In this document: piece by piece, positions 207 through 32,562 of the stretch
How positions within the stretch are numbered: position 1 is the stretch's first letter
Layout of the letters: every line of letters starts with the position of its first letter
Origin: Gammaproteobacteria bacterium
Lineage (GTDB): Bacteria; Pseudomonadota; Gammaproteobacteria; UBA4575
Direction: 5' to 3'
DNA length: 64,000 bases
Assembly: GCA_963662355.1 (NCBI GenBank)
Contig: OY759361.1
Coordinates: 1,386,265 to 1,450,264 of the forward strand
Translations under genes and position numbers: made by a program
The notes under the pieces: model-generated
Seen by the model: the letters and a program-made list of their open reading frames with translations, nothing else
Told to the model about the DNA's origin: nothing
The model's database searches: none

Positions 207-947
207 GTGAGCAATGATCTTGCTGTGCAGATTGCTGAGTTACAACAGGTTCACAGTGGGTTGGCTGAGGTGTCAGTAGATGGGAGCGATACTGTCCTAA
301 AAGGGTCATTGCGCTTCGAGGCGTCAGCCGATGGGTTTGATCCTATAACTGAATGTTTTGAGATCAAAATTGTCATTTCAGGATTGTATCCTGAAGAGCT
401 ACCACGTGTAACTGAAATCGGCGGCAAAATGGACGTCAATTACAGTCACGTATATGAATGCGGGACGTTATGCTTGGCTGTGCCAATAGAAGAGAGGCGT
501 GTATTTCTGGAGCAGCCGTCACTCTTGGGTTTTGTTGATAAGCTTGTCATTCCATATTTTTTCGGCTATTGCCATTGGAAAATGCATGATGTGTATCCTT
601 TTGGTGAATCAGAACATGGTCCGCAAGGGATTGTTCGCCACTACATGGATGTGCTTGGCCTGACTGATGAACTCAGCGTGTTATCCATTATTGCTTTTCT
701 ATATGAGCATGGTTATCAAGGACACCATCCCTGCCCATGCAGAAGTGGCAAGAGAGTCCGCAAGTGTCATGGTAAGGTGTTGCGTCACCTCCATAAGCAG
801 CACACTCAGGATACACTTAAGGCAGATTACTGTGCTGCCTTGGCTGTCTGCATGCCAACCATCAAATCAAACGGCACCAAGGTACCCAAATCACTTAGGC
901 GGCAGATCAGCAGACTATCCAGTCGCCTAAAAGTCAAATCCAAGTAA
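207..947 (+). CDS. UBC/E2-like protein (candidate ubiquitin-conjugating-type enzyme) with C-terminal SEC-C zinc-binding motif
   Basis: GTG start 6 nt after a GGAGG. The motif SHVYECGTLCLAVP resembles the UBC active-site block HPN-x-G-x-(I/L)-C-L-(D/A)-(I/V). The C-terminal HPCPCRSGKRVRKCHGK matches the SecA C-terminal SEC-C motif CPCGSGKKYKxCHG. Upstream gene stop at 206. Confidence 0.45.
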   Translation: MSNDLAVQIAELQQVHSGLAEVSVDGSDTVLKGSLRFEASADGFDPITECFEIKIVISGLYPEELPRVTEIGGKMDVNYSHVYECGTLCLAVPIEERRVFLEQPSLLGFVDKLVIPYFFGYCHWKMHDVYPFGESEHGPQGIVRHYMDVLGLTDELSVLSIIAFLYEHGYQGHHPCPCRSGKRVRKCHGKVLRHLHKQHTQDTLKADYCAALAVCMPTIKSNGTKVPKSLRRQISRLSSRLKVKSK

Positions 948-1246
948 CGAAAGCGCTCTTCATGCCAAGACTTAATTTGAACTGTGGTTATCTTCGTTAA
1001 GGGAGTGGGTTACAAGATGGCTGGATTTTTTTGAGATATCCAGCAATTCCTAACAGATTTCCAGAGTTATTACTCAGCCTAGGTTTTAGGGACTTGTTAT
1101 TGATAGTCTTCTCCCCAAAAGCTGATCCAGGCATAGTGCGAAAAATCTCGTTAAGATGTCTCTGAGAGGCAAAGGAGTATTTTGCATGAAGAATTTGCAG
1201 TTTCTCGAGGAGTAGATTACCTATATGCTGTTGAAGGAAGTCGACG

Positions 1247-2194
1247 ATGATTGCTGTATTTCTCGGTGCTGGATTTTCATCTGTAGGGGGTGTGCCGCTA
1301 GCTTCACAGTTGTTCGATAGACGTCCTCAGGCCGATATAATTTTGCGTGAAAATCTTATCGCACGCGTTTTGAACGGATGGGATTATTGGTATCATAAAA
1401 CTGGCGGAACACCGGAACAATACCTAACTCACCTTGAAACGTATACTGGCAGACAGTGGTATGACGCTGTGTGGTACGTTGCGCTAACAGTTGTTCTCCA
1501 GACTCCCAGGGTCCGCATCGCGGGTGTGAGACCTGCCGTCAGTCATCACACGCTAAATCTCACCAGCGGGGTAGATGTACACGAAGCGTTCTGGACAATC
1601 CTTTTCAAGGAGACTACTGATGTTGCCGTTCTGACAACTAACTACGATATTTTGGCTGAGCGGGGGCTCCGATTGACTTCTAGGCCACGTCTGCCAAGAC
1701 CTGGCTTCCATTACGGGAACGGACCTGAGGAGTTGAAAGGAAGGGGATATCCGGGTGTTTTCCGCAGTCGACTATCAAGGACCGAGGGCACTGTCCCCCT
1801 TATTAAGCTTCATGGCTCGGTGTCATGGGCTGTTGGAGCTGATGGAATCGATCACTATCATGATTGTCGACCAGCTATTCGTGGTGATGCGGCGATCATC
1901 GCCCCCGCTTCTGAGAAAAGTGTACCTCGTACATTTCGGTTGGTTTGGGATACTGCAGCGCTAGTACTTAGAAAATCTGATATTTGGATAATTGTCGGTT
2001 ATAGCTTCCCTACGTATGATGAAGCGATTAATGCTCTGTTTCGCTCAAACGCATCGCATCAGCCTATAGTACATGTTCTGAATTCCGATCCCTGCGTAGT
2101 CTCCCGGCTACAAATGATGCTTCCCAAGACAAGCATCCACGCTCATGAAGGCCTACCAAATTCTCTATGCGAATTACCAATGATGCTCCGTTAA
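1247..2194 (+). CDS. SIR2-family protein (SIR2_2 / stand-alone sirtuin-like NAD-binding or NADase domain)
   Basis: N-terminal VFLGAGFS (the GAGxS NAD-binding motif), LTTNYDILAE (TTNYD motif), LIKLHGSVSW (catalytic-His motif), and the C-terminal IIVGYSF...D block. RBS GAAGGAAG lies 6 nt upstream of the ATG. Confidence 0.75.
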   Translation: MIAVFLGAGFSSVGGVPLASQLFDRRPQADIILRENLIARVLNGWDYWYHKTGGTPEQYLTHLETYTGRQWYDAVWYVALTVVLQTPRVRIAGVRPAVSHHTLNLTSGVDVHEAFWTILFKETTDVAVLTTNYDILAERGLRLTSRPRLPRPGFHYGNGPEELKGRGYPGVFRSRLSRTEGTVPLIKLHGSVSWAVGADGIDHYHDCRPAIRGDAAIIAPASEKSVPRTFRLVWDTAALVLRKSDIWIIVGYSFPTYDEAINALFRSNASHQPIVHVLNSDPCVVSRLQMMLPKTSIHAHEGLPNSLCELPMMLR

Positions 2195-2423
2195 ACACCA
2201 GCATCACAACGTCTTCGTAGCTAGTAGCGTGAGCACTTGAAGCTGACTAGCACAGGTCTGGTCTAGCCCTAGGAGACCTGTGCCGAAAACTATCGTCCCA
2301 AGTTTCTCTCATAGCCTGGTACATACCCGGGGAGTTTGACACCTTGCTACCAGTTTTGTAAAACCAGCTGGAAGTATGCTGAACCAATTAGTCATTATCT
2401 TTTAACACAAAAATAATCAAACA

Positions 2424-3203
2424 ATGACCTATACCAAAGAGGATTGCGACCGGCTTGCTAAAGAACTAGAAGCTATTCAAGCAAACAGTAATAGGATAAT
2501 GTCGAGCTATGTGCTAAGGGATTTCAAAAATCCTAGAGCGCGAGAGTTTGCAACACACGGGTTTCCCCGTCGGATTAAACTTTTAGCACATTGCATTGAA
2601 TTAATTTTTGAGGACTTGCCTCCTGGTACGGATAAGCCACCGAACAGCGACGAGATTCTAGACGTAACAATCTATCTACAAGCATTTGTATTCAATGTTT
2701 TTGGCTGTACTGATAACTTAGCCCACATCTGGGCTAGAGAACAAGATCTGAAGAAGGAAGATGGAAAACTGCTTGAAAATATGGAGATAGGATTTTTTGG
2801 ACCAAGGTGCGGACTGGTCCTGGATTCTTTGCCAGGTGATTTCTCTGATTATTTGAAGGGACTTGAACCTTGGTTTGAATACCTCGGAAACTTCCGGCAT
2901 GCACTGGCTCATCGCATTCCTCCTTACATTCCGCCATTTTACGTTCCCAAGGACAAACTTCAGGAATACGAGGAAATTGGTAATCGCATCGGCGCGGCAA
3001 TTCAGCAAGAAAATTATGACGAAGTAGTTCGACTGGAGAATGAGCAAACGGGTATGGTTTTATTTTCCCCAATTGTAACGCACTCATTTGGCGAGAATGC
3101 CAAAAAGGTATTTTTCCATTCGCAGATGTTATCTGATTTTAATACTGTCGTAGAGATTGCTCAAAAGTTGCTTAAAGAATTAGGAAATACCAATGATGCA
3201 TGA
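2424..3203 (+). CDS. alpha-helical hypothetical protein with R-x4-H motif (candidate HEPN-like RNase domain)
   Basis: 259-aa ORF containing NFRHALAHR, which fits the HEPN Rx4-6H signature. Its stop lies 11 nt inside the next ORF (ATGATG at 3193). Confidence 0.55.
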   Translation: MTYTKEDCDRLAKELEAIQANSNRIMSSYVLRDFKNPRAREFATHGFPRRIKLLAHCIELIFEDLPPGTDKPPNSDEILDVTIYLQAFVFNVFGCTDNLAHIWAREQDLKKEDGKLLENMEIGFFGPRCGLVLDSLPGDFSDYLKGLEPWFEYLGNFRHALAHRIPPYIPPFYVPKDKLQEYEEIGNRIGAAIQQENYDEVVRLENEQTGMVLFSPIVTHSFGENAKKVFFHSQMLSDFNTVVEIAQKLLKELGNTNDA

Positions 3204-4086
3204 GAGGTATCTGTTTTCCGAATTAAATACAAAGGCCTGTCCTTCATTCAAAAATGTTTGCGAAGCAGCAGATGAGAATTGCAAAAGGGCGAAAGAACAT
3301 TGCGAAGACTTATGGGGTGATTTTGCCCCACATGCTGACAAGAATTTTCTTAATCAGTTTCAGCTTCATTTTCATCAGCGTTGGTTTGAAATGTATTTGA
3401 CCGTATCATTTTTACGGGCTGGTTTTGATGTTATTCTTCATAAGCACGGGCCGGATGTTTTACTGAATCTGTTTGGTCAGCGTGTGTGGATTGAAGCTGT
3501 TTGTGCGACTCCAGGCCAAGAGGGGCACGCAGATTCTGTGCCGCCAATTAATTTCGAGAGTGTCGAACCTGTTCCAATAGAGGGATATGTGAAGCGTATA
3601 TGTAGCTCGCTGCGTGAGAAAGAGCAAAAATTCAAGCAGTACATTGAAGATGGCATTGTCAGCCGTGGAGATCTAGCTGCGATAGCAATCAACATTCGCG
3701 ATGTTCCTTTTCTATATGCACACATGGATGACACCATGAAGAGGTCATTATATGGAGTTGGGGATCCAGTTGTGACTATGGATAAAGAATCCAAAAAACT
3801 AGTAAGTACTGATCACCAAACGATTCAAACTATAAGGAAGTCATCTGGTGCACCCATCGGAGTTCAACCGTTTGTTGATGAAAGTATGCCGCACATCTCG
3901 TCGGTTCTGGTTTCTTCGGCAAATGCTGTTGGCCGGCCACCAAGACTTGGGGATGACTATATCCTGTATCCTAATCTGACCTGTACGAACTGCTGGCCCA
4001 GGTGTTTGATTCCGTTAGGTAAAGAATGGTTATTTAAGGGAAATGAAAATGAATGGGTCGGGGAAAAGACTAATCATATTCTCTAA
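3193..4086 (+). CDS. hypothetical protein, translationally coupled partner of the 2424-3203 gene
   Basis: 297-aa ORF with a double ATG start that overlaps the upstream stop. No motif recognised. Confidence 0.55.
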   Translation: MMHERYLFSELNTKACPSFKNVCEAADENCKRAKEHCEDLWGDFAPHADKNFLNQFQLHFHQRWFEMYLTVSFLRAGFDVILHKHGPDVLLNLFGQRVWIEAVCATPGQEGHADSVPPINFESVEPVPIEGYVKRICSSLREKEQKFKQYIEDGIVSRGDLAAIAINIRDVPFLYAHMDDTMKRSLYGVGDPVVTMDKESKKLVSTDHQTIQTIRKSSGAPIGVQPFVDESMPHISSVLVSSANAVGRPPRLGDDYILYPNLTCTNCWPRCLIPLGKEWLFKGNENEWVGEKTNHIL

Positions 4087-4356
4087 TTATGTCTGCCTTT
4101 GAATCCCAGTAAAAGTGGGGTGGATCAGCAGTGCATGATGCATACTCTTCGGAGCTAGGGTTGGTCGTACCGCATTGGTCTCGCGGTAAGTATGACCAAG
4201 CTGCAAATAGCAACGGGCATCACACATCTGCGGTTCTGCCGGGAAGGTGGGCTGTAATTAGTCGGTGTACCAAGAGGTGTCACCTGCAAGCTAAGGCAAT
4301 TAACTACCAATGAAAACCAAGAGCTCAAAGTTGAAATTGCCCAAGTACTCCAATCA

Positions 4357-4716
4357 TTGGATAGACAGCGCGATAAGCTAGAAAACCAAAGAATCCCCAA
4401 TGCTGTTTTGACGCAACAAGTAAAGTCTGAGCAGAGCAACAGACTCACTCGCAACTTTGGCATTACCATAGGAACAATGCTTGCCAGCAACGGGCTTCTT
4501 CGTAGTCGCACCATCATTGACGAATTTTCCTTGGCATTGATTGTGGGAGGTGCACTACTGCTTTTGGTGTCGTGGTTTAGTCCAATCAAGCGCGGAAAAA
4601 ATAACTCCCACCACTGGGAACAAAGCTTGATAGTCAATAGCGTCACAGAGTTAACTATTACTGGAGTCCTAAATCGTGGAGTGGCAAACCAGAAATGCAT
4701 TACGCTCAAGGTTTAG
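4357..4716 (+). CDS. possible small membrane protein (one predicted TM helix); weak call
   Basis: 119-aa ORF with hydrophobic segment FSLALIVGGALLLLVSWF. It competes with an antisense 184-aa low-complexity ORF. The region from 4.1 to 5.3 kb otherwise lacks convincing genes. Confidence 0.2.
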   Translation: MDRQRDKLENQRIPNAVLTQQVKSEQSNRLTRNFGITIGTMLASNGLLRSRTIIDEFSLALIVGGALLLLVSWFSPIKRGKNNSHHWEQSLIVNSVTELTITGVLNRGVANQKCITLKV

Positions 4717-5547: not shown

Positions 5548-6405
5548 ATGACAAAGCATAGCGGGCCTATCTGCATTTCAGTAATAAACATGAAAGGTGG
5601 TGTGGGTAAAACAACTATTGCTGCATTGCTGGGACGATATGCATCTCTGCAGCGAGAACTGGATGTTCTAGCAATAGATTTGGATCCTCAAGCGAATCTT
5701 ACCCAGGCCTTTATGCGTGATCGCTATAAGGAGTTTTTAGACAACAAGCTTCCATCGATTGTGGAGCTCTTCCAAGGCCACTTGCCACCTGGCTCAAGAG
5801 GATCGTCACCATCATCGGTAGATGTGGGCGATGTTCTTGTCCGAAATACTCCACTTGGCGGTCCTAACCTGGAACTTATTCCGTCCAGATTTGATTTTTC
5901 CGACAATCTGATAGGCTCCGTTAGGCCTGATCCGAGAGTTCTCGCAAGATTTATTGTGGATGAGTTTCAGGATAAAGATATCATTTTGATTGATTGTGCT
6001 CCCACCGAATCCATTTTTACGCAAGCGGCCTATCATGCATCCCGATATATATTGGTGCCCGTGAAACCAGAGTATTTTGCCACTATAGGCTTTCCCTTAT
6101 TAAAAGATTCTTTAGATATGTTCCAACGTCGCAATCCTACACACGTAATTGACGTGGCGGGAATTGTCGTAAACAATTCAACCTATCACTACAGTGGAAA
6201 TCAAGGCGGCCCAGAAAGGTCCAGGGCTTTGTCGGAACTTACTGTGGAGGCAAGCCAAAACGATTGGAGAGTATTCAGAAAACAGATTCCCCATTCCAGA
6301 GGATTTCCAAAGATGATGAGGGGGGATTTCCGTCATCTTGGTGACGCCCCGCTGTTTTACCACTTTGCAAAGGAATTTTTTGAAACAATCCTGGGTGATG
6401 TGTAG
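5548..6405 (+). CDS. ParA/Soj/MinD-family P-loop ATPase
   Basis: Deviant Walker A INMKGGVGKTT, then DLDPQANLT, and a conserved Walker B-like IILIDCAP. Confidence 0.85.
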   Translation: MTKHSGPICISVINMKGGVGKTTIAALLGRYASLQRELDVLAIDLDPQANLTQAFMRDRYKEFLDNKLPSIVELFQGHLPPGSRGSSPSSVDVGDVLVRNTPLGGPNLELIPSRFDFSDNLIGSVRPDPRVLARFIVDEFQDKDIILIDCAPTESIFTQAAYHASRYILVPVKPEYFATIGFPLLKDSLDMFQRRNPTHVIDVAGIVVNNSTYHYSGNQGGPERSRALSELTVEASQNDWRVFRKQIPHSRGFPKMMRGDFRHLGDAPLFYHFAKEFFETILGDV

Positions 6406-6419
6406 ATGAAGGAAGTCCT

Positions 6420-7034
6420 ATGACTGAAGAAAAGGGCCTGAGCAATGTGTTGCGTGCCATTGTCCTTGAGCATGGCATCGAAAATGTTGAGCGCACATTG
6501 GGTCAAATTCGAAAATCCACGGCACGCCGTAAAAGTCGTGGTAGCCAACTCGCCCCTTCAAATCAAATCCCCAAGTCTTGTACGGGGCAACCGAAAAAAA
6601 CGAAGATCACAGCACTTGAGTATGTTTCCAAGCTAGATGTAGACCATGAGATAAAGGTGCTACTTAAAGAAGCAGCTAGTGAGTACGAAAGCAAATCGTT
6701 CTTACCAACAGTTGGAGAAATTAAAAACTTCTGTGTAATACAAGGGATAAATGTTCCCGCTTCACATTCTCGGGCAACTGCTATTCCTCGGATTTTCAAA
6801 CATCTGTCACAGTTGTCTCCGCAAGAAATACGTTCGATGCTTCAGTCTAGGGTATTTTCAGGACCGACACGACTCGCACCTATCGCCGATGCAATTAGAC
6901 GTAGCTCTGAACAAAGAGTGAGTGAAGATACTGTCGACCGAAAGGTATGCGAGCCATTACCGAACAAGAAGGAGGTGAAAGAGAAAGAAAAGGAAAAAGA
7001 TATTTTAAAGCCCTCGTCCCCTAAAAACATATGA
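6420..7034 (+). CDS. hypothetical protein downstream of ParA (candidate partner); Lys/Glu-rich C-terminus
   Basis: 204-aa ORF starting 15 nt after the ParA stop, with RBS GAAGGAAG. C-terminal KKEVKEKEKEKD. No ParB motif seen. Confidence 0.5.
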   Translation: MTEEKGLSNVLRAIVLEHGIENVERTLGQIRKSTARRKSRGSQLAPSNQIPKSCTGQPKKTKITALEYVSKLDVDHEIKVLLKEAASEYESKSFLPTVGEIKNFCVIQGINVPASHSRATAIPRIFKHLSQLSPQEIRSMLQSRVFSGPTRLAPIADAIRRSSEQRVSEDTVDRKVCEPLPNKKEVKEKEKEKDILKPSSPKNI

Positions 7035-7274
7035 GGACTAAATGGGTGTAGTAGTGTAAAGATAAATATATTGTGTACCGATACTTCCTTCAGAATCCCC
7101 CATCTCTGTTAGACTTATCTAACATGTTGGATCACAAAAAACCCCGTTATCTGATTGTAGAGACTAGGATCAGCATGCAACTTGCCACACTGAAATAGTT
7201 GTCGGTACTTCTGTCGGTATTTTCTAAAATTGGCCCAATAAAAAAGTCATATGAATTAATACGTTAGGCCTAAT

Positions 7275-7300
7275 GTTCAAATCCGGTTATGTCTCATTTG
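7275..7300 (+). repeat. copy A of a degenerate direct repeat that resembles a tRNA 3' end (GTTCAAATCCGGTTATGTCTCATTTG)
   Basis: Shares about 21 of 23 positions with copy B, plus the following ATTTG. It contains a T-loop-like TTCAAAT and an acceptor-like 3' segment. Confidence 0.45.
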
Positions 7301-7965
7301 TACGTGCCGAAAAGCCAATCCCAGACGGGAACGATCGAGGAGTAGTTTTTGTCCATGTCGTTCCAGTGGTGCCGGTCGTGTCGAATCACCCATGAGTTCA
7401 TGATCCTGAATAGGGGGTGTGGAAACACCAGGCTGGTATGTATGACGATGTTGACCCACGAGTGAATGAACGCGATGGCAAGGAACGACACGATATGCAA
7501 CGGGGCGATCAGGTACATGCTCGCGAACAGGAGTGTGAGTGCTGCAAGGGATTCAACGGGGTTAATGTACAGCCCGTCCAGGGCTTCCGGATAGCGAACT
7601 TTGTGGTGGGTCCCATGGATCCAGCACATCAGTGTTGGATGATGGAGTGAGCGGTGCATAACGTAGTACAGCAGTTCGAACAGCAGCAGGCATGCTGCAA
7701 TCTGGATTGGTATGAGCCACGCGGCTACGGGTTGTATGAGCTGGTCTGAAAATACCCACAGAAATGTCAGGTAGTACCCGAGCGATACCGACCCGCTGAG
7801 TCCGATCAGAAGATACTGCCGCTTCAGTGGCGGATACCTGATCGTGCGGGGTCGAATATGATATCTGCCCAGTCGATCGGAGCGTACGGCAAGAATGGCG
7901 GCAGTCCCAAAGATCGAAATGAAGACAAAGATGGCAGAAATACCCACAATCAGCGTGTAATCCAT
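7294..7965 (-). CDS. fatty acid hydroxylase / sterol desaturase superfamily membrane protein
   Basis: Histidine boxes HRSLHH, HGTHH and HDRHH in a polytopic hydrophobic protein. Confidence 0.8.
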   Translation of the reverse strand: MDYTLIVGISAIFVFISIFGTAAILAVRSDRLGRYHIRPRTIRYPPLKRQYLLIGLSGSVSLGYYLTFLWVFSDQLIQPVAAWLIPIQIAACLLLFELLYYVMHRSLHHPTLMCWIHGTHHKVRYPEALDGLYINPVESLAALTLLFASMYLIAPLHIVSFLAIAFIHSWVNIVIHTSLVFPHPLFRIMNSWVIRHDRHHWNDMDKNYSSIVPVWDWLFGTYK

Positions 7966-8846
7966 TGTCCCCCCATACAGTGGTTCTAGCGTACAAACGT
8001 TGGAGGATCAGGAAAATGCAGCAAGCAATTTTCTCGAGCCTGTAGCCATAGCCATTATACTACATAAAGGCTGGCGATCCTGAATCTACTCATGGGATAC
8101 GTTGCATGTTCACTATATGGTCACCCCAATGATGAACCCTATTCAGCTCTTACCGCAAAGAGAAGGCCGGGTATTTGAGTTGACATTTCAGGCTGGGACG
8201 CAAGTCATGTCGCAGGGACACTTGACCGGTAAAATCTGGGAAAAACACAGGTGTCTGTGAATGAGGGGGAATTGGTACGCTTAATCTTCGATTTGCAACG
8301 AGGGGCACCCCGTTTATGGATCAAACTCGCCCTTAAACATCTATGGGCAAGTTCACATATATTTTTTGAAAATTTGGTATTTCCATTCGAACGGAATCTT
8401 TTTCGCAGAACGTCCGAGTGGACTCGGGAAGCAGGACAAATGTCTGTTAAGCAAAATTAGTAGACATGTGATCAACCGGTGCGGGGAGCTATGAGCAGTT
8501 GTAGCATGATGAGCTGCTAGGGTATGGGGATAGTACGCCTAATGTTCGAATTCCCAAAGGGGGGTACCCCACCATAAAAGGTACTCAGCCCTGTCCATGA
8601 CTAGGCAAGCAGACATACATCTCAAAAAAAATCTGACATTTTCTGTTCAACTAGGCTTTAAAAATTATCCGAAATTTTTCGTTTTGGAACTGGCCTCATA
8701 TTGACACGCAAGGCCTATTACCAAGCTTTTTCGTGCTATGACTGGATCAGTTTACGGTGAGAAGACCACATTTTTAAAGTCTGACATATAATATAGATCA
8801 AGTTTAAGGGGGCAGGGCCGGCTTGTTTATTTTCTAGGAGAAGAAT

Positions 8847-9602
8847 ATGCCAAAATCATTATCACTAAAGCTTACTCCTTACATATTTATTGTAGGTATG
8901 ATCTTTTTATTCTTTGGTGCAAAGATGCCACCTACTATGTCATGGATGGGAATTAATTGGAGTAGCTTTCTTACTGATCTCGGGCTTTACATTGCTGTAG
9001 TAGTAGTTTTGCAATTTTATTACGACAAGCACATGAAACATGAGTTAATTTCGGAAGTTGCTGAATCGGCGCTTTCGAATTCAAATGTGGCTACATCAGG
9101 AATAAGTGATTTTGTCAATAACACAAAAAGAATTAACTATGAAACCATGCTCACTCATAGTGAAGAAATTACCGTTGGATTTTTACACAGTACTAGGTTT
9201 ATTGACGATCATGTATCTGAGCTTCGCAATAGGGTAAAAGAGGGTAAGAAAACATCTATCCTACTAGTGAATCCTGACGGACGCGTAGTCAGTTATCTAA
9301 CCAAGATTGTGCACGACAGTGATCATATTAAACCAGAAATTAAAAAAAACATTAATAAGGTAGGACAAATAAATAATGAGTCAGGTGTAAAAGAGAAAAT
9401 TACAATGAAATACCATGATGCCATTTTAAGGTATTCATTTGTTCATTCTATGGAAGGCACTTGGATTAAGATGTATAGAAATAGTCTTGGAATAGCAACA
9501 ACCCCAGGCATCTACATCAGGAATGGGTCACCGATGTATGATTTCTATAAGAAGGACATTGAAAACCTAAGAGAGGGAGCCCAAGATGTCACGTTTGGAT
9601 GA
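8847..9602 (+). CDS. hypothetical membrane-anchored protein (two N-terminal TM helices), AT-rich gene
   Basis: 251-aa ORF with strong RBS AGGAGAAG. Low GC. Overlaps the next ORF by 17 nt. Confidence 0.6.
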   Translation: MPKSLSLKLTPYIFIVGMIFLFFGAKMPPTMSWMGINWSSFLTDLGLYIAVVVVLQFYYDKHMKHELISEVAESALSNSNVATSGISDFVNNTKRINYETMLTHSEEITVGFLHSTRFIDDHVSELRNRVKEGKKTSILLVNPDGRVVSYLTKIVHDSDHIKPEIKKNINKVGQINNESGVKEKITMKYHDAILRYSFVHSMEGTWIKMYRNSLGIATTPGIYIRNGSPMYDFYKKDIENLREGAQDVTFG

Positions 9603-10023
9603 TCTTGCAAGTCAACTTGGCTATAAAGAGGCATGTGAAATTCTGCAGCAACATGTATCCGGAACTAAAGTTACTCAAGACGTGCTTACGATTGTAGTAA
9701 ACGAAGGAGTTCATCACATGCCTGAAGAATATCTTTTTGGAGAAGTCTTCTATGCGAGTGCAGGAAATTTGAACTTTTCGTCTGAAATTACAGTGTATGA
9801 GGAATATCAAAATGTACTATCAAATGTTGCTCGCAAGCTCAAAAGCAAACCATGGAAACACATATACATTGTTCCATTTGGGCCTAGCACATTAAGTATG
9901 CAAATAAAGCTATTGGTTTATAGAATTACTAGAATCGACTCTATTGATTTATTTTATTTAGGTGATGGAGAGTATTTCACTTTAGAGTTGGATCAAAGAA
10001 ATATTATTGTTTCAGTAGATTGA
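9586..10023 (+). CDS. hypothetical protein, translationally coupled to the 8847-9602 gene
   Basis: 145-aa ORF. RBS GAGAGGGAG lies inside the upstream gene's 3' end. Confidence 0.5.
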   Translation: MSRLDDLASQLGYKEACEILQQHVSGTKVTQDVLTIVVNEGVHHMPEEYLFGEVFYASAGNLNFSSEITVYEEYQNVLSNVARKLKSKPWKHIYIVPFGPSTLSMQIKLLVYRITRIDSIDLFYLGDGEYFTLELDQRNIIVSVD

Positions 10024-10131
10024 GTCGGTCTTTTATACGTAAACTTGGCGCAATAGATTTGAAGCTCCATGAATCGAGAGAAAAGCGTTTCTTTTACTAG
10101 ACCCCAGTCGTGATTTTTCAATGGCTTATCA

Positions 10132-10171
10132 TTTTTGTTGCAAATTATTTGATCTTTATCTGCAACAAAAA
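10132..10171. repeat. inverted repeat TTTTTGTTGCA-N18-TGCAACAAAAA
   Basis: Perfect 11-bp arms. Located about 110 nt downstream of the 9586-10023 gene. Candidate terminator or operator. Confidence 0.4.
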
Positions 10172-10667
10172 GGCAAGCCGCAATACTAGGTGACAACATC
10201 ATAGGTAATCTCACCAGCCAGCTACATTAAATCAATAGATAACAATGCTAGCTTACATAATCGCAAGCATTCGATTTCTTTGGGTGTCATTATGGTGTGT
10301 CGTCATTCAAGCAAGAGGCAAAATACGTCTCATTTAACGAGTGTTTGGAGAACCGTCTTGTTATTTTCTTGCCAGCATAGAGGTGATCCACAGCATCTCA
10401 CTTAGATAGACTGAAGTCATCTGGAAGCCAGTATGTCGTATCTCTACATTCCAAGCAATGTATAGAATTCATACTATGCCGATGACTTTTGTTGCGGTGT
10501 CTGACAATCATTGCAAAGCTGGCGTGAATCCTGGTGGCTGAGTACTACGTAATAGGAATGTTTGAAAACTATTGTAGATGGCTATTCGTTTCAACATGAA
10601 AAGGTAATTTCTATGTTGTGCACATTTACGCGGTAAATGGTTTGTAACTCAAGTTACAGGATAAGAG

Positions 10668-11828
10668 ATGTCTTACAGATACACTAATATTCGAATTGTT
10701 AATCCAAGTTTGGGTTTGGACAAGATTGTGTATAGACGGTTTTGGTTATGGTGGGCAGCACATGCTGCAGCAGAAGAAACTCTGCAAGGGGGGCCAATAA
10801 TTTCGGCTTGGTTAAAGTTATTTCAAACACATTTGAGTGACTCAGATGTTAGGAATTTACGTTGGCGGGACAATCTTGCAGGAAGCTCGGAGATGAGGCG
10901 GGCGTACTCTGCAATGTATGGTCGTTACTTTGGCCGTGCTTTTATAGCCAGCATGTTAGGAATAACAGATTTCGTTCCTCTTAGCTCAAAAGTTACTTCT
11001 ATAACAGGGGGAGTAACTGTAAGCCGAAAAACTAAGGGAGACATTCCTGATTGGATAGCATGGGACTCGGTAGCCAAATCTTATATTCTTGCAGAGGCAA
11101 AAGGCAGGTTGACCGGAAATGAGAAGAGTTTTTTGTACGGCATGCCTGCTTGTATTAAATCAGGTAAGGCTCAATTTGGAAGGGTAGAAGTTAGGGATTC
11201 ACACGCAAGAAAGATCAAAACGTGCAATTGGGTAGTAGCGAATCTCTGGGCTACCGAGAATCGAGGTAGAAGATCAGTTTCATTATTGTGGGACCCGGTT
11301 GAGAACGGAGAAAAACTCTTCGCTGAAGAAATACCACAACATGCAATTGCGATTCGCAGGCACCGTATAAAAAATATTGCGATGGGACTTGGGCGATCGA
11401 AGTTATTGCAGCTAGGCGCAAAGGAGACGGGGCTGACCTTACGTATATCTATAGAGCCATCGAAAGCTGGAGTGCTAGATTCTTTCACAGATGACATGTT
11501 ACTGGGGCTTTCTGAAAAGTTCGAGAGTACCAACCTTCCAGCAATTGAGAAGTCGTCTCAGGAACGACATGAAGATGTATACGTTGCTGCACTTATCACG
11601 CCTCTTGGAGTTCGCCCAATACTTGATTTATTAGATCTTGAAGCTGCACGTAATGTTCAAAGGCAGGTACGTAAGGCTAACGAAGCCGCTATGATTTATG
11701 GTCTTTCAACTAATGCACTGACGACATTGGAATACAATCAAGCGCTATGGTTGTCAGATGGTGGGATAGTTTCATCTGACGGAGCTGGCTTGTTTAATAT
11801 AAAAGAGATCGAATTTGACGAGTCATGA
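10668..11828 (+). CDS. hypothetical protein with candidate PD-(D/E)xK nuclease core
   Basis: 386-aa ORF. The motif DIPDWIAWD is followed after 13 aa by ILAEAKG, giving the PD ... ExK spacing typical of the restriction-endonuclease fold. Confidence 0.5.
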   Translation: MSYRYTNIRIVNPSLGLDKIVYRRFWLWWAAHAAAEETLQGGPIISAWLKLFQTHLSDSDVRNLRWRDNLAGSSEMRRAYSAMYGRYFGRAFIASMLGITDFVPLSSKVTSITGGVTVSRKTKGDIPDWIAWDSVAKSYILAEAKGRLTGNEKSFLYGMPACIKSGKAQFGRVEVRDSHARKIKTCNWVVANLWATENRGRRSVSLLWDPVENGEKLFAEEIPQHAIAIRRHRIKNIAMGLGRSKLLQLGAKETGLTLRISIEPSKAGVLDSFTDDMLLGLSEKFESTNLPAIEKSSQERHEDVYVAALITPLGVRPILDLLDLEAARNVQRQVRKANEAAMIYGLSTNALTTLEYNQALWLSDGGIVSSDGAGLFNIKEIEFDES

Positions 11829-12350
11829 GGTAATTTGAGCGTAGTATCTGCAACAAATTACTGAGTTATGCCTAATATCAAGCCTTTAGGTATGTGAAAA
11901 AAGGAATTAGACAGGAAAGGAGTTTATTGAAGAGCACAGATATCAGATGAAATACAGGGAAATAAGTCAGAAGCTCGCATACAGCTTAATACTTTATTTG
12001 GGTAGGACTAAACAGGTTCTGCATTTTAAAGTTGGAAGATTGACCACCTTGGCCTGAAACCGTTGTTCAGTAATTTCATAAAGGTCTGCGTACACACTCA
12101 GATAACTTGACATGTAATGTGCGAATGAGACTGTATTATGATTACTCACAAATGTGCTGACTTAAGCCAAACTGGCAACTTAGGAATATCTCTGGGTTGT
12201 GTAATCCGTTACAAAGGAGGGTAAGCCAAATAGCAATTTGGTGTAGGTTCAATTCCCGAATTATGCCGAAAAATTCGACAGTGTTTTTAGCAGTATATTT
12301 GAAATAAATTAATCTATTAAGCATTTTAAATACGATAGATTATAAATATA

Positions 12351-12377
12351 GTTCAAGTCCGGTTATGGCTCCATTTG
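12351..12377 (+). repeat. copy B of the tRNA-3'-end-like direct repeat (GTTCAAGTCCGGTTATGGCTCCATTTG)
   Basis: T-loop-like TTCAAGT, followed by CCGGT and then TATGGCTCCA. Lacks a 5' half, so it is not a complete tRNA. Confidence 0.45.
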
Positions 12378-12616
12378 AACAGTCCGAGAACGTCCGAAGA
12401 AATCTGAAAATGCCCTGTAAAGGATGACTGATTGTTCAAGGAATTCGCTGCTAAGTTCTCTCTTGGAAGGTATGCACAATTTCACCGTTTGATTGTCCAA
12501 TGAATTTCAAGGGAGTTTAAGTTGTATTATTATCAAGGTAGAAGATAAAAGAATGTATCGCTTACACTGGAAATCCAGCTTTTGAAGCACCAACACAATG
12601 ATAAAAAAAGTCTTCA

Positions 12617-13144
12617 ATGATTGTTCGAGGGTATTTTAAAGACGACGAAGATATCGGCTCCCAATGGGAACAGCATGCAGTGTATGACGAGGCACTTAGT
12701 ATCATCGTATCGAGCTGTAACCGGCACACTAATTTTGCACGATCTCTTCTGGAAGATTCCCGCCATAAGACATGGGGAACAATCAATTGCTACGATCACA
12801 GGACGCTTCAGGATGCACACGACCTTCTCGCTGCAGCATGGCGATATCAGGATGGAGGGAGTTATCGGCAGGGTAAACTACCCTTTGAAGGCGGGGATCC
12901 TTTCGATGAGGTTGAGGTGCTCTGGCTCAACTGGCTTCGCCATGAGGTAGATGGATGGACCGCTAGGCCACACTTGATCCGTTCGGTTCAGATAATTTTG
13001 TCCAATCAAAATAAGCCACTGGGGTATATGACCGAGTCGAAACTCTGCCTGGATATCTTAGACCGGTTTTCAAATATGCCGTGGGACCGTAGATTATGTG
13101 AAGCACATGAACAGGACCTGTATCAGGAAAGTGCTGTAGAGTGA
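12617..13144 (+). CDS. hypothetical protein
   Basis: 175-aa ORF with no obvious RBS and no recognised motif. Confidence 0.35.
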   Translation: MIVRGYFKDDEDIGSQWEQHAVYDEALSIIVSSCNRHTNFARSLLEDSRHKTWGTINCYDHRTLQDAHDLLAAAWRYQDGGSYRQGKLPFEGGDPFDEVEVLWLNWLRHEVDGWTARPHLIRSVQIILSNQNKPLGYMTESKLCLDILDRFSNMPWDRRLCEAHEQDLYQESAVE

Positions 13145-13386
13145 TAAAGTCAGGCTAGTAAACACTCAAAGCACGCTCAAATGCTATGTCCCGTATTGTT
13201 CTGGTGCTCCAAGAGGACTTCGAAGCATTGGTAGCCCTGAGATAGAGCACAAACAACTCACGACAGGCCACATTGTCCGATTGTGAACAAATCCAGGCGG
13301 GAAGTGATCAAAAAGGATTGATAGGCGTACGTTACGAACACGGGTAAGCCAAAATCACAATTCAAAGTAAACTCAAGCACGGTTTC

Positions 13387-14544
13387 TTGTCCGGCGTCCT
13401 CTTTGCAGCGGTGCTCGTGGCTTACTTTTTCTTTTTCTACATGCCAAGAGATCAGGATGCAAAACGCAACTCGATCAACTTTGATCAGGTTGCAATCGAC
13501 CCCTATACGCACAAGCTCCACAATTCCCTGTTTATTGCTGACTTGCATGCAGACTCCTTGCTCTGGGCTCGTGATTTAAAAAAAGGGCACGGGTATGGTC
13601 ACGTCGATATCCCTCGCATGCTGCAAGGAAATCTTGGCCTGCAGGTTTTCTCCATTGTCACCAAGTCGCCAAAAAACCTGAATTTGTTTGAAAACGATGA
13701 CCGCACGGACAACATCAAGTTACTGTCCATTGCCCAGCGCTGGCCTGTGTACACATGGAACAGCCTGTACGGACGCGCCACATACCAGTCACAAAAACTC
13801 CATGATTTGCAGGCTGCAGTACCATCTTTTCGCATCATCAAATATAAAGAGGACTTGCAGCAGTTCATCGTAGACAAGCAATCACGGAATAGACTTGCTG
13901 CCGGGATACTGAGCCTGGAAGGTGGGCATGCCTTGGAAGGTGACTTGGAGAATGTTGAAAGACTGTTTGATGCGGGAGTCAGGATCATTGGCTTTGCTCA
14001 TTTTTTCGACAACCGCCTGGGCGGATCCGCACACGGCCTCAATAAAGGAGGCATCACGGATTTCGGGCTAAAGGTATTGAAGGAAATGGAGCGTTTAAAC
14101 ATTCTTGTCGATATCGCCCATGCATCACCCGCTTTAATTGATGACATATTCACACACACTGCCCGTCCTGTTATCGCCACTCATACGGGTGTTCAAGCCA
14201 TTTGCAATCGCTCTCCAAGAAACCTCACTGACGAGCAAATCAAGCAGATTGTCGACAGCAATGGAGTCGTTGGAATCGGGTTTTGGACAGATGCGATCTG
14301 TACCTCACAGGTCAAGGGTATAGTCGATACCATCCGCTACGTCACTGACCTGGTCGGCGAAGACTATGTAGCTCTGGGTTCAGACTTCGACGGTAATGTA
14401 CAGACACCGTTTGATGCGGCCCATATGATCGTGTTGACCCAGGCTTTGCTGGATGCAGGGTTCACAGAGTCACAAATAAAGAAAGTGATGGGAGATAACG
14501 TAAGGCGCCTTTTGCTGGAAAACTTGCCTGCGAGGATGCACTAA
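13387..14544 (+). CDS. membrane dipeptidase (peptidase M19 / renal dipeptidase family)
   Basis: N-terminal hydrophobic anchor, then IADLHADSL (similar to the DGHxD box), HVDIPR, DIAHAS, and the family hallmark LGSDFDG. The start could be TTG at 13387 or ATG at 13441. Confidence 0.65.
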   Translation: MSGVLFAAVLVAYFFFFYMPRDQDAKRNSINFDQVAIDPYTHKLHNSLFIADLHADSLLWARDLKKGHGYGHVDIPRMLQGNLGLQVFSIVTKSPKNLNLFENDDRTDNIKLLSIAQRWPVYTWNSLYGRATYQSQKLHDLQAAVPSFRIIKYKEDLQQFIVDKQSRNRLAAGILSLEGGHALEGDLENVERLFDAGVRIIGFAHFFDNRLGGSAHGLNKGGITDFGLKVLKEMERLNILVDIAHASPALIDDIFTHTARPVIATHTGVQAICNRSPRNLTDEQIKQIVDSNGVVGIGFWTDAICTSQVKGIVDTIRYVTDLVGEDYVALGSDFDGNVQTPFDAAHMIVLTQALLDAGFTESQIKKVMGDNVRRLLLENLPARMH

Positions 14545-14892
14545 TATTGAGTACAGTTGTCCTGTGTGCCAGCGAGCGGACATGCAGCACCTCGAGCTCG
14601 CTGTATGCTTGCTGGTGAACACTGAGGGAGACAATGGTGTCGGAAAATGTTGGGCATACATCCCTGAATAGGGAAGCAGGTAGCATCTCATAAAATCAGG
14701 ACAATTCAGTTGAAATTTGCTATGTATAGACCCGGGTGAAGGACAGGCGATGATGAAGACAAGGTACATTATGTCGATGTTGGGTATTGCGATAACATCG
14801 ATAGCCGCAGAAAGCTGATGCGTGCTGGCCTGTTTCACAGCGTAGTTCGGATCTATGTGCTTGAGAAATAAATATCGGGTTGGAGAAAACCA

Positions 14893-15162
14893 ATGAATTC
14901 CAGTGACGCTCAACCGGTCAAGGTGACAATCTATGTTGGCGACAAGCAGGTCGAAACCCTGTCCTATTACTCCGGTGGAGAATGGAATGAGGATTCACAA
15001 CTGGATAATACCCTCACTGAATTTATTGCATACCTGAAGTATCAGCTAAAGGATTCATTGCCCACCCAGGAAATGCAGCACAAGATCATAGACAGAAAAG
15101 AATACGATGCATTGGAACATCTCGCGGCAGACGTCTTGTATGTAGTCAGGGAAGGTGAATGA
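14893..15162 (+). CDS. hypothetical small protein
   Basis: 89-aa ORF with RBS-like GGAGAAAA. Confidence 0.35.
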   Translation: MNSSDAQPVKVTIYVGDKQVETLSYYSGGEWNEDSQLDNTLTEFIAYLKYQLKDSLPTQEMQHKIIDRKEYDALEHLAADVLYVVREGE

Positions 15163-15482: not shown

Positions 15483-18053
15483 GTGACCGGTTTGGACTCT
15501 AAGTTGATCACTTCAATCCTGTCCTGTGCGTCAGGAACACTGCTCGCAGCGTTGCTGTACATGCCGGTCGGCCTGCAAGCCGAGGAGCCTGCGGAACTGT
15601 CTGTCGAGCTTCCGGAAATCAGCGTGATCGGCTCGAGACGACCGGTCCGCGCAGCGGTGGATGCACCCTCGGCGGTGGACATCATCAGTTCGGAGGACCT
15701 CAGCAACCAGGGGACGAGCCAGGTGCCCGAACTGCTGCGCAAGCTGGTGCCGTCCTACAACGTAGGCACCCAGCCGATCAGCGACGCTGCAACCTTCATC
15801 CGTCCGGCCAATTTGCGCGGCCTCGCCTCAGACCAGACGCTGGTGCTGGTGAATGGCAAGCGCAGACATCGCGCGGCGGTCATCTCATGGCTTGGCAACG
15901 GCGTCTCGGAAGGTGCCCAGGGGCCCGACATCAGCGTCATCCCGGCGATCGCGCTGAAGCGGGTCGAAGTGCTGCGTGATACCGCCTCCGCACAATACGG
16001 TTCCGATGCGATTGCGGGCGTGATCAACTTCGTGCTCAAGGACCGCCCGCAAGGCGGTATCGTCGAGGCCCAATGGGGTCAGACCTACACCGGCGACGGC
16101 GATGAATATCGGGTTGCCGGCAACCTGGGCATACCGCTTGGTACCAACGGCTTCGCCAATATCAGCGCCCAGTGGCACGAGATGTGGCCGACGGTGCGCA
16201 GTGTGCAGCGTGGCGATGCACAGGGCCTGATCGACCATGGCAACCTCGTTGTTCGCCAGCCGTACGCCCAGGTCTGGGGACAGCCTGACGTCGATGATGA
16301 CTACACCGTTTTCCTGAATTCTGGTGTGGAAGTCAGCGAGCAGGCCGAGCTCTACGCCTTCGGCAACGCTTCAGAGCGCGAGACCGAAGGCGGGTTCTTC
16401 TTCCGCAATCCAAATACCCGCAGCGGCGTGTTCATTGTGGAAAATGATCAGGGAAACTACCGCCTGCCTCTTGCCCCGGGCTGCCCGGGGTATGATGATC
16501 CTCCAGGGCGCATCCTCGTGACGGATGACAACGAGCTGTTTGACTGGACGCCGTATCCGGGGTGTTTCTTCAACGAGCGCTTCCCGGGCGGTTTCACGCC
16601 CAAGTTCGGTGCCGAAGTCAGCGACGCTTCAGGTGTGGCGGGTCTTCGCGGGGAGTTTGATTCAGGCCTGACCTATGACGCCAGCTACTCGATCGGCGAG
16701 AGCGAGGCCGAATTCACTATTCGCAACACCATCAATGCGAGCCTGGGTCTGGCGACGCCGGCGGAATTCAGTCTTGGCAAGTACACGCAGACCGAGCAGA
16801 CCCTGAGCCTGGACATGACCCGTCCGATCGAGACGACGTCTTTTGCATCGCCCCTGTACGCTGCATTCGGGGTTGAATGGCGTGAGGAGGAGTTTGAGGT
16901 CAGCGCGGGCGAAGAGGCTTCATGGGTTGACGGACTGATTCCGGATGCCGGCGTCGGCGCCAACGGTTTCTCGGGGTTCTCCCCGGTCGCCGCCGCGGGC
17001 AAGTGGGACCGTTCCAACGTCGCTGCGTATGTCGAGTTCGAGGCGGACGTCACGGATGCGCTCACCCTGGCCGTGATGGGCCGCATCGAGGACCACGAGG
17101 ATTACGACACAACCGAGGATTTCAAGCTCGGTGCAATTTTCAGGGCCACGGACAATGTCAGCCTGCGTGGTTCGGCCAGCACTGGCTTTCGCGTCCCGAC
17201 CGTGGGGCAGGAGAATGTCGCAAACGTCACAACAGCGTTTATCCTGGATTCGCAAGGCAGGAATCAGTTGACGCAGCGGGGCACGATTCCCTCGAAATGT
17301 CCGGAGGCTGCGGCAGTGGGCGCGGAGAAACTCGAAGCTGAGGAGTCCGTTACGTACACGGCGGGCTTTGGTCTGGAAATGAATTCGGTCTCGTTCACCG
17401 TGGATGCGTACCAAATCGAAGTCGATGACCGTCTCGGCCTGTCCGCGGACAAGACGCTGACCGCTGCACAGAAAGCGGCGATCGGCAAAAGCGGATGCTT
17501 CCCCGCCACCGACGTAAGCAATTTTCGCTTCTTCGGCAACGGGTTCGACACGCGCACCCGCGGGATCGATCTGGTTACGAGCCTTGACATGACGGACCGG
17601 CTGCCGCTACTGCACGGCGGCAAGACGGAGCTTGTATTCGTGGGCAACTACAACGACACCGAAGTCACCAGCCACAATTCGGAGTTCATTGGTGAGCAAC
17701 GCATCAAGCAACTGGAGGACGCGCTGCCGAAGCTGCGTTTCAACGTGACGTTGCGACATGACAGGGAACGGTGGGGTGGCTTTGCGCGCGTGAATTTCTT
17801 TGGCAGCTATGAGGAGTTCCACGCCGACAGCGCAGATTTCTTCATTGAGCCGGACGAGGAATTCACGCTGGACGCCGAGGTAAGCTACCGTCCGGCAGAC
17901 GGATTCGAACTGAGCATCGGGGCGGAGAATATCTTCGACAACTTTCCGGACAGGAACGAGTTTGCCGATGTGCTCGGTTCCAAGTATCCCGAATCCTCGC
18001 CGATGGGATTCTCGGGCGGGTTCTACTACGCCCGCGCCCGCTACCACTGGTAG
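15483..18053 (+). CDS. TonB-dependent outer-membrane receptor
   Basis: Signal peptide ending ...GLQA/EEP. Plug-domain blocks NLRGLASDQTLVLVNGKRR and IALKRVEVLRDTASAQYGSDAIAGVINFVLK. C-terminal aromatic residue ...RYHW. About 62% GC. The start could be GTG at 15483 or TTG at 15492. Confidence 0.85.
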   Translation: MTGLDSKLITSILSCASGTLLAALLYMPVGLQAEEPAELSVELPEISVIGSRRPVRAAVDAPSAVDIISSEDLSNQGTSQVPELLRKLVPSYNVGTQPISDAATFIRPANLRGLASDQTLVLVNGKRRHRAAVISWLGNGVSEGAQGPDISVIPAIALKRVEVLRDTASAQYGSDAIAGVINFVLKDRPQGGIVEAQWGQTYTGDGDEYRVAGNLGIPLGTNGFANISAQWHEMWPTVRSVQRGDAQGLIDHGNLVVRQPYAQVWGQPDVDDDYTVFLNSGVEVSEQAELYAFGNASERETEGGFFFRNPNTRSGVFIVENDQGNYRLPLAPGCPGYDDPPGRILVTDDNELFDWTPYPGCFFNERFPGGFTPKFGAEVSDASGVAGLRGEFDSGLTYDASYSIGESEAEFTIRNTINASLGLATPAEFSLGKYTQTEQTLSLDMTRPIETTSFASPLYAAFGVEWREEEFEVSAGEEASWVDGLIPDAGVGANGFSGFSPVAAAGKWDRSNVAAYVEFEADVTDALTLAVMGRIEDHEDYDTTEDFKLGAIFRATDNVSLRGSASTGFRVPTVGQENVANVTTAFILDSQGRNQLTQRGTIPSKCPEAAAVGAEKLEAEESVTYTAGFGLEMNSVSFTVDAYQIEVDDRLGLSADKTLTAAQKAAIGKSGCFPATDVSNFRFFGNGFDTRTRGIDLVTSLDMTDRLPLLHGGKTELVFVGNYNDTEVTSHNSEFIGEQRIKQLEDALPKLRFNVTLRHDRERWGGFARVNFFGSYEEFHADSADFFIEPDEEFTLDAEVSYRPADGFELSIGAENIFDNFPDRNEFADVLGSKYPESSPMGFSGGFYYARARYHW

Positions 18054-19588: not shown

Positions 19589-19664
19589 AGGCCAGTAGCT
19601 CAATTGGCAGAGCGGCGGTCTCCAAAACCGCAGGTTGGGGGTTCGATTCCCTCCTGGCCTGCCA
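19589..19664 (+). tRNA. trpT: tRNA-Trp (anticodon CCA)
   Basis: Sequence AGGCCAGTAGCTCAATTGGCAGAGCGGCGGTCTCCAAAACCGCAGGTTGGGGGTTCGATTCCCTCCTGGCCTGCCA has a cloverleaf with anticodon loop CUCCAAAAC. It closely resembles E. coli tRNA-Trp and sits in the classic position upstream of secE. Confidence 0.9.
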
Positions 19665-32063: not shown

Positions 32064-32540
<477 letters not shown>

Positions 32541-32562
32541 TGTCCAGTTCAGGGTCCTGATT

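Follow-up and report, generated by a model that had tools for sequence, protein, structure and literature searches.

A solo gene with a predicted PD-(D/E)xK nuclease fold in a gammaproteobacterial low-GC island: a candidate single-gene defence nuclease

Shedu is a single-protein immune nuclease in which variable sensor domains gate a common PD-(D/E)xK core (10.1101/2023.08.10.552793; 10.1101/2023.08.10.552762). Another documented defence layout associates an ABC ATPase with a separate nuclease; in HEC-02, this nuclease is a NERD-type PD-(D/E)xK protein (10.1101/2024.01.29.577857).

The present work concerns a 386-aa protein encoded in a 64,000-nt stretch of DNA (the whole of which is called the window hereafter) from an uncultured gammaproteobacterial lineage with ~2-Mb genomes. 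New PD-(D/E)xK defence nucleases are reported often, and such candidates are common. With a probability of roughly 0.55, the protein is a solo divalent-metal-dependent phosphodiesterase of the PD-(D/E)xK type, most likely serving as a single-gene anti-phage or anti-plasmid nuclease. Direct support covers the gene and its family, the conservation of residues, the fold as predicted and the genomic settings; the nuclease activity, DNA as substrate, the role in defence and that of the C-terminal module are what we infer.

The gene and its low-GC surroundings

The ORF list contains the gene exactly where the preliminary description had placed it:

10668..11828, + strand: complete gene, 386-aa protein (ORF list, homologues)
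10658..10661, + strand: Shine-Dalgarno-like AGGA (direct reading of the sequence)

The gene starts with ATG, 6 nt downstream of the AGGA motif, and ends with a TGA stop codon at 11826-11828. The ATG start is confirmed by the homologues, which begin at the same residue (MPYRYT in the target, MSYRYT in homologues). A perfect 5+5 palindrome, GTAAC-TCAA-GTTAC, lies directly 5' of the AGGA at 10644-10657, perhaps as an operator or a small hairpin. The intergenic flanks extend from 10024 to 10667 upstream and from 11829 to 12616 downstream. A promoter scan gave fewer promoter-like sites than shuffled sequences, and the sole terminator-like site falls within the target gene itself. In an Rfam scan of 8000-13500, the only match was to mir-153; it was below threshold and was put down to chance.

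The low-GC block noted in the preliminary description is real: the GC content is 40.2% at 8001-12000 versus 48.3% over the whole window, and the GC3 of the target gene is 0.37 versus ~0.53 for rpoB/rpoC. As had also been observed, the target is the largest ORF of this block and lies 3' of a pair of genes coding for 251-aa and 145-aa proteins. More broadly, the first ~12.5 kb of the window form a horizontally acquired, low-GC island of defence genes, and rpoB, rpoC, fusA and tuf are found downstream. Other genes of the island include the following:

207-944: CBASS-type E2 (PADLOC, E 3e-75)
1247-2194: SIR2-domain protein (3e-10)
3193-4086: PD-T7-5/PD-T7-1-like protein (3e-21)
5548-6405: ParA ATPase

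Since the E2 gene is near the window start, the other genes of a CBASS operon may be located immediately beyond that boundary. Imperfect direct repeats with the core GTTCAAaTCCGGTTATG occur at 7265-7310, 8534-8551 and 12347-12387, the copies at 7271 and 12347 being alike over ~40 nt with one indel. The repeats look like the 3' part of a tRNA (T-loop-like TTCAAGT ... GGCTCCA); the tRNA-Trp at 19589-19664 does not match them. Statistical support is marginal, 1 of 300 shuffles having scored as high as the 17-nt core. These repeats could be relic att sites bracketing the 7.3-12.4 kb segment.

Two other ORFs of the window deserve mention. A TonB-dependent-receptor-like ORF of 856 aa (15483-18053) has a GC content of 61% and a GC3 of 0.75, versus ~50% and ~0.53 for rpoB/rpoC/tuf; it also looks foreign, from a high-GC donor. 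The EF-G ORF (32428-34662) begins with TTG and codes for 744 aa, against 699 aa in homologues; given these ~45 extra residues, the true start is probably internal.

Predicted fold and conserved residues

AlphaFold modelled the whole protein with confidence (pLDDT 86.4, pTM 0.88). The features of the protein, placed on the DNA, are as follows:

10674..10745, + strand: N-terminal beta-hairpin, aa 3-26 (AlphaFold strands 3-12 and 17-26; pLDDT ~87)
10746..11402, + strand: predicted PD-(D/E)xK nuclease-fold core domain, aa 27-245
10887..10958, + strand: helix alpha1 of the model, aa 74-97, with E75 and a basic/serine track R77, R78, S81, G85, R86, R90
11037..11111, + strand: motif GDxPDW...x14...EAKG, aa 124-148, with D128 at the start of beta2 and E143 and K145 in beta3
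11148..11177, + strand: helix alpha2 of the model, aa 161-170, with K167 and Q169
11472..11543, + strand: low-confidence, length-variable linker, aa 269-292 (pLDDT <50; many indels in the alignment)
11565..11825, + strand: family-specific C-terminal alpha/beta module, aa 300-386

In the model, the hairpin 3-26 is followed by two helices, the long helix 74-97, strands 116-120, 129-133 and 138-147, helices 152-157 and 161-170, strand 173-177, two more strands and helix 222-240. The disordered linker 269-292 then leads to the alpha/beta module 300-386. D128 directly precedes strand 129-133, and E143 and K145 belong to strand 138-147 of the same hairpin. Judging from the register of this hairpin, D128 would face E143, as in the canonical arrangement. 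The restriction-endonuclease (PD-(D/E)xK) fold suggested in the preliminary description is therefore supported by the predicted structure, which displays an alpha-beta-beta-beta-alpha-beta core with D128, E143 and K145 at the active-site positions, the aspartate at the start of beta2 and the (D/E)-x-K in beta3.

The peptide from which this suggestion arose, GDIPDWIAWDSVAKSYILAEAKGRL, corresponds to residues 124-148 (nt 11037-11111). It does contain a PD followed by E-A-K; however, the residues are P127-D128, E143 and K145, and not D126, E147 and K149 as first numbered, and 14 residues, instead of 13, separate D128 from E143. By itself, the D/E/K motif is not beyond chance and proves little: D-x(10-20)-[DE]-x-K is found in 63% of composition-preserving shuffles of the target protein, and PD-x(10-20)-[DE]-x-K in 3.2% of them. 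What makes the motif significant is its conservation among relatives having just 19-63% identity. Among the retrieved relatives covering the site, D128 and E143 are each kept in 234/234, K145 in 231/234 and W129 in 233/234, and the D/E/K set thus passed the conservation check. Outside the motif, an acidic residue (E or D) occupies position 75 in 230/230 relatives, S81 is kept in 235/235, R86 in 236/236, R90 in 234/236 and Q169 in 234/237. An alignment of 71 sequences, with a mean column identity of 16%, contains only seven invariant columns: S81, G85, R86, R90, D128, E143 and K145. R4 and R9 are almost invariant within the close family.

The best structural matches are LHK-Exo and a YqaJ-like phage exonuclease; MspJI, McrC and HsdR are also among the fold matches. 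For the full model, the top Foldseek match is HindIII (E 0.4), and the fold matches include no SRA, EVE, YTH or other known modified-base reader. Helix alpha2, which carries Q169, may be the equivalent of motif IV, the Q-containing motif of RecB/lambda-exo/Cas4-type nucleases. Together with the best structural matches, the signature E/D75...D128...E143-x-K145...Q169 resembles the RecB/lambda-exo/Cas4 branch. Membership in families of this branch was tested and rejected. The N-terminal hairpin and the C-terminal module gave only weak small-beta-barrel matches. Both are conserved in the close family and divergent or unmatched in distant relatives; the C-terminal module is a candidate regulatory or specificity domain.

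The family, its genomic contexts and the alternative readings

A large protein database contains ~197 homologues of the target, most of them full length (38-63% identity), and every one bearing a name is called "hypothetical". An exhaustive profile search retrieved 405 representative clusters at E<=1e-3 (the ~400 family clusters are counted at 50% identity), the more distant of which match the N-terminal ~250 residues only. Genome matches belong mainly to Alpha- and Gammaproteobacteria, plus one Spirochaetia MAG. The target matches no family in Pfam, NCBIfam, PADLOC and PHROGs (Pfam and PADLOC at E<=1), including all known anti-phage defence families of PADLOC-DB v2.0.0, and none of 71 diverse superfamily members matches any Pfam family. 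Searching the PDB by sequence, with the single sequence and with the profile, yielded nothing meaningful; a match to a ClpB-homologue stretch (E 0.047) was treated as chance. Matches restricted to the C-terminal domain (P0173, P0190, P0223 and others), considered as alternative architectures, proved to come from the same family, as fragments that are truncated or mis-called. The family is new, unmodelled in libraries dated up to 2026, inside a very well known superfamily. It has no member in 50,697 phage genomes or in 2.9 million viral contigs, and phage carriage was rejected.

The 90%-identity cluster of the target has a single member and the next homologue is only 63% identical, although genomes with 99-100% identical EF-G exist. 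This suggests that the target is a strain-specific accessory gene. In a Thalassobaculaceae MAG (L024, 7880-9027), the family gene is split into overlapping ORFs (7880-8698 and 8542-9027), which suggests a frameshift, either a pseudogene or an assembly error. On the opposite strand, this gene adjoins one coding for a 1361-aa AAA_23/SMC_N + S24-peptidase protein.

Defence or mobile-element hallmark genes occur within ~8 kb in 15/17 inspected distinct loci (a descriptive count). The contexts, characteristic of defence islands or of mobile elements, comprise NACHT/nSTAND, Type ISP, AbiEii and an integrase; ICE TraG/TrwC, AAA + S8 peptidase, DUF3800 and a reverse transcriptase; a DndH/HerA-like ATPase with TrwC/TraG; HipA with IS elements; DarT-Macro, an MmeI-type enzyme and an integrase; LmuB_C, CHAT and pP_pnuc; and DruA, SNF2, DEAD/ResIII and Upf1-like helicases with a C5 methylase. 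Distant relatives matching in the N-terminal domain only are found on alphaproteobacterial plasmids, some of them conjugative, and are annotated hypothetical; one lies directly 3' of an "abortive infection family protein" gene. An AAA ATPase + S8-family peptidase pair is near the family member of L003 (4336-7803) and also near a distant relative on an unrelated replicon, plasmid pRL8 (L037, 11223-12642). DUF3800 genes adjoin the family gene, upstream in L002 and downstream in L003.

All-against-all clustering of the ORFs of 27 loci revealed no conserved partner, except for an ATPase in one lineage. In this gammaproteobacterial lineage, an SMC_N/AAA_21 ATPase of 987-991 aa ends 33-49 bp 5' of the family gene, on the same strand:

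L002/L004, 4981-7956: ~990-aa ABC-type ATPase
L005, 4978-7953: ~990-aa ABC-type ATPase
L025, 4981-7956: ~990-aa ABC-type ATPase
L029, 2989-5952: ~990-aa ABC-type ATPase

This ATPase matches the PADLOC models Ppl (best, 1e-27, C-terminal part only), AriA, mad3, AbiLi, HEC-01A, PtuA and GajA, and its first ~300 residues are without annotation. With the family gene, it may constitute an undescribed ATPase + PD-(D/E)xK two-gene system. In one ATPase-coupled protein, P0022 (L002/L004, 8001-9176), which represents a 6-member cluster, AEANG is found instead of AEAKG, the catalytic lysine being replaced by asparagine (K145N).

Among the alternatives to a solo defence nuclease, the one that survives best, though still unlikely, is a solitary restriction endonuclease, either modification-dependent and Type IV-like, with modified bases read by the C-terminal module, or of Type II with its methyltransferase encoded elsewhere. 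The PD-(D/E)xK core with an extra domain, the lack of a partner gene and the defence-island setting would all suit such an enzyme, as would the presence of HindIII, MspJI, McrC and HsdR among the fold matches. Moreover, in L021, a C5-cytosine methylase gene lies 47 bp downstream of the family gene. It should, however, be noted that L021 is the only one of ~17 inspected loci with a methylase beside the family gene. In the window, no adjacent cognate methyltransferase was found among the tested ORFs between 207 and 15159, none of which (207-4709, 5548-7965, 8847-10023, 12617-15159) carries a methyltransferase domain. Modified-base readers are also missing from the fold matches of the full model, and specificity cannot be deduced from the sequence.

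Two further readings are less probable, to a similar degree. According to the first, the target is the nuclease half of an ABC ATPase + nuclease system whose ATPase was lost, the orphan being perhaps inactive or unregulated. The co-oriented ATPases described above, their matches to models of defence ATPases and the documented ATPase + nuclease layout (10.1101/2024.01.29.577857) speak for it. However, the coupled ATPases are 84-89% identical to each other, so the pairing is that of one narrow lineage. P0039, which belongs to the same sequence clade, has an IS transposase upstream in place of the expected ATPase, and its family gene is nevertheless intact. An adjacent co-oriented ATPase is found only at the loci listed above; in the window, tblastn gave no trace of one (best E 0.55), P0005 and P0011 of the window's own clade are also solo, and the window protein keeps every catalytic residue. 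Since the ATPase is limited to one lineage and absent from P0039 and from the window, the nuclease is basically a solo unit that one lineage coupled to an ATPase.

According to the second, the target is a toxin or an addiction or competition nuclease serving a mobile element and not host immunity. Several homologues are indeed cargo of ICEs or plasmids, near TrwC/TraG, ParB, RepC, integrases and IS elements, and the window has its ParA gene. On the other hand, clustering of the ORFs of the 27 loci gave no conserved small neighbour that might be an antitoxin, and many loci of the family correspond to chromosomal defence islands that lack conjugation genes.

A recombination exonuclease of the lambda-exonuclease/YqaJ type, or a DNA-repair nuclease, is far less credible. 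In its favour, LHK-Exo and the YqaJ-like exonuclease are the best structural matches, and a conserved Q is found on the helix after beta3. However, the YqaJ profile (PF09588), like all of Pfam at E<=1 and every other profile, is silent. When the 71-sequence family profile was compared using hhalign with a template profile made of lambda-exo and LHK-Exo (2 sequences only; the lambda-exo sequence is 100% identical to PDB 6m9k/1avq), the probability was 0.08%. In addition, no gene for a single-strand annealing protein adjoins the family gene in any inspected locus, the family is absent from phages, and the target is larger than lambda-exo-type enzymes, with extra domains.

The reading of the target as the effector of the AT-rich module upstream, hence as part of a three-gene system, is just as improbable. 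The two genes of this module, at 8847-10023, overlap by 17 nt and gave no profile match; the 251-aa protein has two N-terminal hydrophobic stretches. They adjoin the target on the same strand, in the shared low-GC block. However, the GC content of the module is 35% versus 44% for the target, and a 644-bp spacer (10024-10667) lies between them. The same overlapping pair is found in three unrelated loci (L034, L035, L036, ~6001-7186; 48-87% identity), where the genes 3' of the pair are unrelated and tblastn gives no match to the target. Outside the window, the pair adjoins genes for a Type I HsdR and a DEAD helicase, is near a HigB toxin, or adjoins an integrase and a methyltransferase-like gene. 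Conversely, no homologue of either module gene is encoded in 33 loci (492 kb) around family members. The module recurs without the target and the target without the module, which argues against the effector role proposed in the preliminary description. The two genes may themselves be a candidate defence or toxin pair, separate from the target. That first interpretation is partly supported: the nuclease fold is supported, on the basis of conservation and of the model, and the effector role was rejected; the stand-alone Abi-like or restriction-like nuclease that it also envisaged is plausible.

Finally, inactive PD-(D/E)xK domains exist and the P0022 cluster carries K145N, but a non-catalytic DNA-binding or scaffold protein can practically be dismissed because 234 relatives show essentially no variation in the full catalytic set, as expected of an active enzyme.

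Proposed mechanism and comparison with known systems

A stand-alone defence or restriction-like role is plausible for the target, and it is reasonable to regard the gene as a candidate new one-gene defence system. By analogy with established PD-(D/E)xK chemistry, D128 at the start of beta2 and E143 in beta3 would coordinate Mg2+ and K145 would activate or position the attacking water. E75 of alpha1 and Q169 of alpha2 may complete the active site, and the S81/R86/R90 face of alpha1 may contact backbone phosphates of the nucleic acid. The gene is an accessory unit that moves horizontally, with defence islands, ICEs and plasmids as its carriers, and the nuclease would cut invading or cellular DNA after activation. 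By analogy with the sensor domains of Shedu, the N-terminal hairpin and the C-terminal module may regulate the nuclease or direct it to its substrate, a step that is speculation. A more detailed proposal can be put forward only tentatively, its chances being well below those of the general reading: the family would be a new single-gene anti-phage or anti-plasmid system, a hitherto undescribed C-terminal sensor module and the N-terminal hairpin would gate the nuclease, and in one lineage the nuclease would have become the effector of a Ppl-like ABC ATPase.

If the prediction of a defence nuclease holds true, a compact one-gene nuclease family would be added to the catalogue of bacterial immune systems, and several hundred "hypothetical proteins" from defence islands, ICEs and plasmids of Proteobacteria would gain a name and an active site. 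Recruitment by the Ppl-like ATPase would represent modular exchange between solo and ATPase-coupled forms, and the existence of both forms offers a natural test of how sensing modules exchange immune effectors. In practical terms, the gain is modest and consists of an annotation model, a candidate to include in defence screens and perhaps a new nuclease specificity. For the specialist, the result is useful and unsurprising, with nothing mechanistically surprising.

Restriction enzymes typically have no sequence similarity to each other. Type II and Type IV enzymes (HindIII, MspI, MspJI, PaqCI, SfiI) have the same fold as the target, with statistically non-significant similarity; they differ from it in that the window has no adjacent methyltransferase and the target no recognisable DNA-recognition or modified-base reader domain. 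Hachiman HamA (DUF1837), Cap4, McrC and the Type I HsdR nuclease domain gave very low scores and no profile match. These effectors rely on a helicase, GTPase or translocase as partner, and the target has none; in particular, the target neither matches DUF1837 nor adjoins a HamB helicase. Lambda exonuclease, YqaJ and LHK-Exo (PF09588; PDB 3syy, 3k93, 3slp) are proteins of ~200-226 aa, whereas the target has 386 aa and adds the N-terminal hairpin, extra strands and the C-terminal domain; moreover, no annealing protein partners its family, which does not occur in phages. The likeness to HEC-02, Septu PtuAB and PARIS AriAB comes from the single subclade located 33-49 bp 3' of a ~990-aa ABC-type ATPase, and the HEC-02 NERD protein belongs, like the target family, to the PD-(D/E)xK superfamily. 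However, an ATPase is lacking beside the window gene and beside most members of the family, and the nuclease matches none of the effector models of these systems. As for Shedu (SduA, DUF4263), the DUF4263/SduA profiles do not match the target (Pfam and PADLOC at E<=1). Nevertheless, Shedu is the closest functional analogy, both being single-gene units of defence islands in which an accessory domain that is less conserved, and that might control activity, is combined with a PD-(D/E)xK catalytic core.
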